Shown here: positions 14,717 to 15,466 of the stretch, one piece after another
Numbering within the stretch: the stretch's first letter is position 1
Layout: every line of letters starts with the position of its first letter
From: Candidatus Woesearchaeota archaeon
GTDB taxonomy: Archaea; Nanobdellota; Nanobdellia; Pacearchaeales; GW2011-AR1
Direction: 5' to 3'
DNA length: 24,000 bases
Assembly (NCBI GenBank): GCA_964503975.1
Contig: CAZDCI010000009.1
Location: 1 to 24,000, forward strand
Notes under the pieces: model-generated
What the model was told of the DNA's origin: nothing
The model's database searches: none
Seen by the model: the letters and a program-made list of their open reading frames with translations, nothing else
Translations under genes and position numbers: made by a program

Positions 14717-15466
14717 TCATAAATCTCTTAGCTGCAAAATTGTGGGAAGAGAAGCTATTTTTTTTAAGTTATCTGAAACTTTCAGACGAACATATTTATT
14801 GCTGATACGTTTTTTCTCGACGGGAATTCCTTTTTTTATAAGTCTTCCAATATAGTCTCGTATAGAGCTTTCAGTAAGATTAAGCTTCTTCGCAAGGGTT
14901 TTATAGTCACTGTAACCATCTTCCTCATCCAGCTGGTAAAGTGTTGAAAAAACCAAGAGTTCCTGGTCTGTGAGTTTTTTGAATTTAATGCGAATTTCTT
15001 TTTTAATCCCATCTAAAGAATCAAGAATTTTGACCGCATTGTCTATAGAGTCTTGAGGTTGTTCTGAAATTCCTGTTTCTGTGTTAAAATTGTGTTTTCC
15101 ACTGGAAATAGGGGTGTGTCTGTTTGTCTGTCTGTCTGTCTGTCTGTCTGTCGAAACCCCTTCGTTTCGTGTGGAAATACCTAAATTTTGGGTTCTTAGG
15201 GGCTTAAAAGGGTGTTGGTGTGTCGAAGAGTGTGTCGAAAGTGTCTGTTTCTGGCCTCCTTGTGTCGAAGTCCAAACAGGCTGTTTTTGCTGTTTGTTTG
15301 GGTGTTTTTGGATGTTTTTTTCTTTTTTTTCGATTATTTTAGATAAAATTTCAACAACTTTGGTCAACTCTTGTTTAAGAATTTTTACTTCTGTGTTTAA
15401 AGAATTCATATCTTCTTTTATTTTCCCGAAAGCTTCCCTGGCTTTTTTTTCATCCATTTTTTCCAC
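14717..15466 (-). CDS. Coiled-coil, repeat linker, C-terminal wHTH protein (paralogue B)
   Basis: N-terminal coiled coil. The linker is encoded by repeat DNA (KQQKQPVWT, TDRQTDRQT). The C-terminal LTDQELLVFSTLYQLDEEDGYSDYKTLAKKLNLTESSIRDYIGRLIKKGIPVEKK is a wHTH collinear with paralogue A. Confidence 0.65.
   Translation of the reverse strand: MEKMDEKKAREAFGKIKEDMNSLNTEVKILKQELTKVVEILSKIIEKKEKNIQKHPNKQQKQPVWTSTQGGQKQTLSTHSSTHQHPFKPLRTQNLGISTRNEGVSTDRQTDRQTNRHTPISSGKHNFNTETGISEQPQDSIDNAVKILDSLDGIKKEIRIKFKKLTDQELLVFSTLYQLDEEDGYSDYKTLAKKLNLTESSIRDYIGRLIKKGIPVEKKRISNKYVRLKVSDNLKKIASLPTILQLRDL
15097..15118 (+). repeat. ORB-like box ttccactggaaataggggtgtg inside the paralogue B coding region
   Basis: Matches the oriC boxes ttccatccgaaataaaggtgtg (16851 and 16950) in the pattern TTCCA-N3-GAAATA-N2-GGTGTG. 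Also matches the canonical archaeal TTCCAGTGGAAA core. Confidence 0.6.
15117..15152 (-). repeat. Tetranucleotide microsatellite: (GACA)7 on the coding strand, plus two flanking degenerate units
   Basis: The plus strand reads tgtc tgtt then (tgtc)7 at 15125-15152. It is translated as TDRQTDRQT within paralogue B. Confidence 0.9.
15153..15181 (-). repeat. ORB-like box (plus strand gaaaccccttcgtttcgtgtggaaatacc) inside the paralogue B coding region
   Basis: Closely parallels the left oriC box gaaaccccctcacccctgcgtttcgtctggaaagg at 16669-16703, sharing GAAACCCC and CGTTTCGTNTGGAAA. Confidence 0.6.

Follow-up and report, generated by a model that had tools for sequence, protein, structure and literature searches.

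Initiator binding sites that lie outside the replication origin itself are described from both archaea and bacteria. In Pyrococcus and Thermococcus, a cluster formed by an origin recognition box (ORB3) and mini-ORBs is located inside dp1, the gene for the small subunit of DNA polymerase D (PolD), and in Pyrococcus this cluster was found to be bound by Cdc6/Orc1 in vivo, by chromatin immunoprecipitation, as well as in vitro (Matsunaga et al. 2007, PMC1904270). The ORB-rich region oriC2D of Haloarcula hispanica is intergenic and carries 11 ORBs downstream of cdc6E; it is genetically essential and exerts a negative control on initiation, proposed to operate by holding the initiator (Wu et al. 2014, PMC3936714). 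In bacteria, DnaA boxes that are not part of oriC, among them datA and the boxes of the dnaA promoter, couple the initiator level to re-initiation control or gene expression (PMC3936714). The present text describes two intragenic ORBs, boxes A and B, in a Candidatus Woesearchaeota archaeon (Nanobdellota; Nanobdellia; Pacearchaeales; GW2011-AR1). The stretch analyzed, here called the window, comprises 24,000 nucleotides (positions 1 to 24,000 of contig CAZDCI010000009.1, or C9, assembly GCA_964503975.1); the assembly has 658 kb in 22 contigs and about 34% G+C, and the source names of homologous proteins put it with the Pacearchaeota-type DPANN archaea. Judged from its sequence and its conservation, box B is probably a recognition box of Orc1/Cdc6 in the coding strand of a conserved, origin-proximal gene, wHTH_B, the product of which combines a coiled coil with a winged helix-turn-helix (wHTH). 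Searches of the published literature returned no report of an intragenic ORB element in DPANN archaea.

Box B (TTCCACACGAAACGAAGGGG) is the primary intragenic ORB and occupies positions 15157..15176 on the minus strand, which is the coding strand of the gene, where it is read as I-S-T-R-N-E-G-V. Box A (TTCCACTGGAAATAGGGGTG), the second ORB, is found at 15097..15116 on the plus strand; it is lineage-specific and lies antisense to the gene, with the reading H-T-P-I-S-S-G-K. The two are convergent, with the G-strings pointing inwards, and the spacer of 40 bp consists of GAAA and a (TGTC)9 microsatellite (15117..15152) that is in frame and encodes TDRQTDRQT. Both boxes are contained in the open reading frame (ORF) 14717-15466 of the minus strand, 1.5 kb from the oriC boxes. 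An earlier note, made from the sequence alone, had described two convergent ORB-like boxes with inward G-strings around a GACA repeat, embedded in a protein-coding gene 1.5 kb from oriC, and the sequence agrees with it in all these respects. The pattern TTCCA-N3-GAAATA-N2-GGTGTG, which the note gave for box A and both right-hand oriC boxes, fits box A and the oriC box at 16950; the oriC box at 16851 departs from it, ending in GGTGTT.

Boxes A and B are full ORBs of the form TTCCA-N3-GAAA-Y-N3-GGGG, and in both of them, as in the left oriC box (16679..16700, minus strand), GGGG is placed 4 nt past GAAA. They share with the canonical ORBs of Sulfolobus oriC1 and Pyrococcus oriC the TTCCA-N3-GGAAA dyad followed by a G-string at fixed spacing, and the consensus of box B is the oriC-box consensus of the class; box B itself, as present in the window, has an imperfect dyad (TTCCACACGAAA). 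Unlike canonical ORBs, they flank no unwinding element, are not intergenic, and each has, relative to its partner box, the opposite of the usual polarity. The expression TTCCAN3GAAAYN1-5GGGG has three matches in the window, compared with 0.01 expected, and box A, box B and the left oriC box are its only matches across the 658-kb assembly. The dyad core alone, TTCCA-N3-G(G)AAA (mini-ORB), is matched by both boxes and has eight matches in the window against 1.1 expected; the five sites formed by the oriC boxes and the intragenic boxes account for six of the eight, box A being matched on both strands. A weight matrix trained on ORBs located next to orc1 (11 boxes, taken from four genomes of other orders), and hence independent of this genome, ranked box B best of 1.3 million positions (28.7 bits) and box A second (23.3 bits), ahead of the three oriC boxes (23.0, 22.7 and 20.8 bits). 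The next match in the genome reached 16.5 bits, so the genome-wide search suggested in the earlier note found nothing equally good besides the oriC boxes. Chance similarity was rejected by these whole-genome scans with regular expression and matrix, together with a reversed-pattern control (below). An additional regular-expression match on another contig (C6:37244-37261) was treated as chance; its dyad-to-G-string spacing is wrong and it lies antisense in an ORF of 998 aa.

The locus resembles dp1 of the Thermococcales in that ORBs are located in a protein-coding gene, a few kilobases from oriC and orc1/cdc6, in an arrangement kept among relatives. The Thermococcales dp1 genes carry one ORB plus several mini-ORBs downstream of cdc6 and represent one order, whereas here a single full ORB (two in this genome) is found on the other side of oriC, in the codons of a wHTH linker; it keeps its register in several orders, and its silent sites are demonstrably frozen. 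No full ORB was detected in dp1 of this window by regular-expression and matrix scans. In common with oriC2D, which itself has no origin activity, the boxes are satellite ORBs beside an origin: they lie outside the origin core, a few kilobases from orc1, and box B is conserved among relatives. They differ from oriC2D in number (one or two) and in being coding. The bacterial DnaA-box sites are likewise initiator-type sites outside an origin, although initiator, motif and domain of life are different and these sites are mostly clusters or located in promoters rather than a single, in-frame, frozen site.

The relatives compared are metagenome-assembled genomes and phylogenetically non-independent, and the counts for other orders are lower bounds. 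Box B was present on the sense strand and at the same place in all 30 full-length orthologues extracted (17 from the genus, 13 from other genera and families of the order), at protein identities down to 26%. The consensus of the block in these orthologues is T TCC AYN GGA AAY NNN GGG GTT CCA ACA GAC A. Among the matches listed for the order, 79 of 81 homologues carry a sense-strand box, the other two being C-terminal fragments at contig ends. Within the order, conservation does not stop at the G-string but extends into GGGGTTCCAACAGACA (e.g. L036, 5474-5493 and flank). For other orders, at least 18 of the 69 homologues listed carry a 22-nt pattern, TTCCANNGGAAAYNNNGGGGTT with at most one mismatch, which fits both the box and canonical oriC ORBs. 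A sense-strand box was seen in 7/7 homologue-bearing loci around pattern matches (L050-L054, L059, L060) and, at 20-35 bits, in 10/10 homologue loci chosen without regard to the pattern. The class was sampled with 401 genomes, and 237 of them contain the pattern, usually once per genome; the reversed pattern gave two matches. The tallies of pattern and protein family coincide (71/76 for both in family f1, 6/6 in f4, 10/12 in f12, 14/14 in f29), and in families without the wHTH_B protein the pattern is sporadic (3/40 in f26, 0/19 in f30). The same 20-nt pattern is also the element repeated immediately upstream of orc1 in other orders (L056, L062-L064), including families without the protein, which identifies it as the box of the initiator. 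The identity of boxes A and B as ORB-type initiator boxes, proposed in the earlier note, is strongly supported.

Box A has a much narrower distribution. Within the genus it was found in this genome and the congener G015 only, and G188 and G036 have comparable antisense boxes in other frames. Only box B is ancient; box A is a recent, lineage-specific second copy in opposite orientation. The convergent pair that the earlier note treated as a unit is present here, but its only ancient part is box B, box A being confined to this genome, G015 and, in another frame, one other genus. Two boxes are present in this genome and in several genera (G188, G036 and genera with tandem pairs), and one in most genomes. 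Where extra canonical boxes occur, they are either oriC boxes or share the linker with box B, no more than 40-60 bp away from it, which points to a function dependent on exact location.

The conservation concerns nucleotides rather than amino acids. In the linker block, defined as the box codons and the adjoining T/Q repeat codons, synonymous variation is absent: Ser is TCC in 30/30 sequences, the two Gly are GGA (27/27) and GGG (30/30), Val is GTT (29/29), and Pro CCA (21/21), Thr ACA (27/27) and Asp GAC (23/23) are frozen in the same manner. Conserved residues outside the block use two to six codons each, with entropies of 0.56-2.4 bits. In the genome as a whole TCC provides 8.5% of Ser, GGG 17% of Gly and CCA 22% of Pro codons. 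The residue preceding the box Ser may be F, I, S, N or L, but 28/30 orthologues have T as the third base of its codon, and where this residue is Ser the codon is AGT, which keeps TTCCA. The variable positions of the box are the dyad center and the three bases before the G-string, i.e. the variable positions of ORBs. The primary box is in phase 2 and is read S-x-G-N-x-G-V. G309 and G330 have a second, phase-1 box 43 nt upstream, with the reading L/V-P-Q-E-I-K-G; G078 and G428 have a phase-1 box only, with the reading VPQERMGS or SSKEIKGS; box A, which is antisense, gives H-T-P-I-S-S/H-G-K both in this genome and in G015; and the antisense boxes of G188 and G036 occupy two further frames, read PPHFLWN and TPFFPVE. 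The same DNA motif is thereby read in five coding contexts (SxGNxGV, VPQEIKG/VPQERMGS, HTPISSGK, PPHFLWN, TPFFPVE). The frozen codons, and the occurrence of one motif in other frames and in antisense with unrelated peptides as the result, show that selection is on DNA and not on the peptide, and the identity of the DNA in different frames is the most direct evidence for this. On these comparisons, box B is under strict purifying selection at the nucleotide level across the whole class.

The host gene wHTH_B (14717..15457, minus strand; likely start ATG at 15457) encodes a protein of 246 aa with an N-terminal coiled-coil helix (residues 3-50), a linker (51-136), and a helix plus MarR-like winged helix (137-245). 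The linker of about 85 aa is predicted to be disordered and carries both boxes; being placed in codons of a disordered linker, the box is tolerated by the protein. Of 41 relatives, 35 have a full-length, open orthologue; the family to which the protein belongs counts over 2,300 members, which carry no functional assignment. Searches with wHTH_B in Pfam, NCBIfam, PDB (by sequence) and Foldseek returned only generic winged helices of the MarR, HTH_36 or CodY type. The microsatellite between the boxes, a (GACA)n tract, is kept in frame as a TDRQ repeat in the orthologues of the genus. The reading frame is intact in all but one of about 80 orthologues of the order, the exception being G194 with two TAA codons, so there is no cross-genome sign of the frameshift alleles to be expected of a phase-variation switch.

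A textbook-type origin is located at 16.67-16.98 kb of the window. Its left (distal) ORB, with the coordinates given above, has the orientation of box B and is followed by about 100 bp of almost pure A/T, within the A/T-rich unwinding region (16703..16850). Two plus-strand ORBs, 99 bp apart, lie on the right: R1 (16851..16870), in which the G-string has degenerated to GGTG and which has a conserved tail (GGTGTTTTTCTTT), and R2 (16950..16969), which abuts the start of orc1. The initiator gene orc1/cdc6 (17000..18211, plus strand) is present in a single copy in the assembly and is divergent from wHTH_B. Since the G-strings of the oriC boxes have drifted to GGTG or CGTG in the genus, the intragenic box is the most canonical ORB of the genome. 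Counting only genomes with both genes on one contig, wHTH_B was located 1.4-13 kb from orc1, and always divergent from it, in 64/64 genomes of the order; in other orders at least 26 cases were found at 3.6-32 kb, 24 of them divergent. Because the gene is always divergent from orc1, box B always shares the orientation of the distal oriC box and turns its dyad side to the origin. An early argument, that the box follows the gene and not the origin, was weakened, as the gene itself is always origin-proximal.

Four other explanations of box B were considered. The main one to survive is that the box is an operator for the product of its own gene, a coiled-coil/wHTH dimer that would bind the palindrome TTCCAnTGGAA both there and at oriC; wHTH_B would then autoregulate and, at the origin, either compete with Orc1 or cooperate with it. 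MarR-like dimers bind perfect palindromes of the type that the dyad represents, wHTH_B has a dimerizing helix in addition to its MarR-like wHTH, the gene is always near the origin, and box and protein co-occur family by family. A symmetric dimer would, however, have no reason to keep the asymmetric G-string, which is as invariant as the dyad (GGG in 30/30) and matches the full-ORB element; in structures of Orc1 with ORBs the G-string is the part contacted by the initiator. Identical ORBs also flank orc1 in families without a wHTH_B protein (f10, f13, f15-f17), and in the window the dyad of box B is not perfect, as noted above. The operator is therefore judged quite improbable. The conserved unit might instead be a short linear peptide motif, S-T-G-N-E-G-V, with its likeness to an ORB as a by-product; in favor of this, the peptide stands out as conserved in the linker, which is disordered and variable elsewhere. 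Against this stand the seven codons without synonymous change, several of them disfavored, the wobble T kept in front of the box while the residue it belongs to varies, and the retention of the DNA motif in other frames and in antisense, including the two genomes (G078 and G428) with their only box in phase 1. The peptide reading, which is given next to no probability, is already contradicted by the sequence data.

The pair of boxes could also represent a second replication origin, active or dormant, or the relic of a duplicated one, as two inverted full ORBs 40 bp apart and 1.5 kb from oriC may suggest. Their polarity is opposite to that of oriC, with the G-strings inward, the spacer is (TGTC)9 and not A/T-rich as in an oriC-type origin, and most relatives have a single box. 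A relic would be expected to decay, yet box B is invariant across the class. A second origin or relic is accordingly very unlikely, and the fossil of an origin duplication considered in the earlier note was rejected in view of the strict nucleotide-level purifying selection on box B. Finally, the conserved stretch could act as RNA, as a hairpin in the mRNA or a protein-binding site in the transcript, and indeed the primary box is invariably a sense-strand box and TTCCAnnGGAA is able to form a short hairpin. The sense orientation is, however, fixed simply by the box being coding, secondary boxes occur in antisense, and the stem is broken without compensation in the window, G004 and G001 (GGAA to CGAA or AGAA). 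An Rfam search of 14500-17100 gave no match, which also counts against an RNA element, and the probability left to it is minimal. A scan for promoters and terminators used bacterial consensus patterns and is uninformative for an archaeon.

The sequence comparisons thus favor Orc1 as the ligand, and box B is very probably a selected Orc1-binding DNA element. The earlier note had offered an auxiliary or titration site, or a regulatory link between initiator and gene, and functionality of this kind is strongly supported by the nucleotide-level conservation. If the element is of this nature, regulation of the gene in cis is a tentative choice for its role and titration or negative control of initiation a rather doubtful one; an architectural role together with oriC is improbable, as is, to the same degree, any role of another kind. 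In the preferred mechanism, one Orc1 monomer (two in this genome) would bind within the body of the transcription unit, oriented like Orc1 at the left oriC box, and the bound initiator would block transcription of wHTH_B, so that the output of full-length coiled-coil/wHTH protein would be tied to initiator occupancy. As a second or alternative role, the site would hold the initiator next to oriC, in the manner of datA or of oriC2D in Haloarcula. It would be duplicated almost at once after the origin fires, and with few initiator molecules in ultra-small cells a single site of high affinity could matter.

Several points weigh against an Orc1 site with these roles. A single site would be a weak titrator in comparison with datA or with oriC2D and its 11 boxes, and the binding of Orc1 to the boxes, as well as the effects on transcription and replication, are predictions. 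An intragenic element is inherited with its gene, so that the strict association with the gene is by itself no proof of regulation. The palindromic dyad could be bound by the dimeric wHTH protein itself, the genomes compared are metagenome-assembled and statistically non-independent, and the ORB model offers no explanation for the conserved extension GGGGTTCCAACAGACA in this order. A wider replication-control circuit of DPANN archaea, in which intragenic Orc1 would throttle wHTH_B while wHTH_B and its paralogue would act on oriC or on the organization of the origin region, is an unlikely though conceivable extension; initiator and origin-binding factor would then be joined in a feedback loop that is built into dual-coding DNA.

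We know of no experimental work on replication control in DPANN archaea and of little on archaeal initiator sites outside origins. Box B provides a single, well-delimited candidate Orc1 site, conserved to the base within a reading frame throughout the class, and a clear instance of dual coding in nature, the "protein motif" being dictated by a DNA signal. In this respect it also calls for caution in annotation, STGNEGV not being a peptide motif. The site may serve as a handle on how an ultra-small archaeon with a single initiator might couple the initiator level to gene expression or to the control of re-initiation, and the coiled-coil/wHTH pair is flagged as candidate origin-associated factors.

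The paralogue wHTH_A (13775..14443, plus strand) has the same architecture as wHTH_B and is convergent with it, here and always among the relatives; its linker consists of (VQTx)n repeats and has no ORB. In this linker (14062-14152) and its orthologues, 12-nt repeats (GTN CAA ACA GSN) encode the (VQTx)n, with codons that are near-invariant across the order (CAA 24/25, ACA 27/28). CAA and ACA are preferred codons, and the signal is therefore weaker than that for the ORB; the linker may also carry a DNA-level motif (CAAACAG). Upstream of wHTH_A, a short stretch on the minus strand (13648-13722) is 60% identical to residues 46-70 of wHTH_B and is a remnant of a third family member. In L037 (G013), an extra full ORB (TTCCATTAGAAACCGAGGGGCTTCGACAC, 4100-4119) is located just upstream of the wHTH_A paralogue and looks like a copy of the box-B block. 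Within the extended block of the order, TTCCAACAGACA, placed 20 nt beyond the first mini-ORB core (TTCCA-N3-GAAA), differs from a second such core by one mismatch; in the window (15153-15160) this second core has degenerated to TTTCGACAGACA, and in other orders the sequence past the G-string is unrelated (GGGGTTTATTCAAATATT).

The oriC of the genus contains three distinct classes of ORB, each with a conserved tail, as seen in the window (16851-16889 and 16950-16976) and in L013-L043. The distal box ends in GGGG(G)TGAGGG, R1 in GGTGTTyTTCTTTATTAGT and R2 in AACGTGTGGG, and the R1-R2 spacing is always 97-99 bp. The tail of R1 could be a site for another factor. The longest ORF of orc1 starts with GTG at 16967, inside R2; alignments of orthologues start at about residue 9-15 of this ORF, which makes the ATG at 17000 the likely start. 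Downstream of orc1 are the genes for the PolD small subunit and an HD-domain protein, followed by a long ORF that leaves the window and presumably encodes the PolD large subunit. The GC skew within the window was uninformative on replication initiation. Between oriC and wHTH_B (15525-16593, minus strand) there are three small genes, all transcribed away from the origin; one encodes a PRC-barrel protein (16333-16593) and the other two have no family match. No more than about 90 bp separate the left oriC ORB from the start of the first of the three genes, the promoter of which may be under the influence of Orc1.
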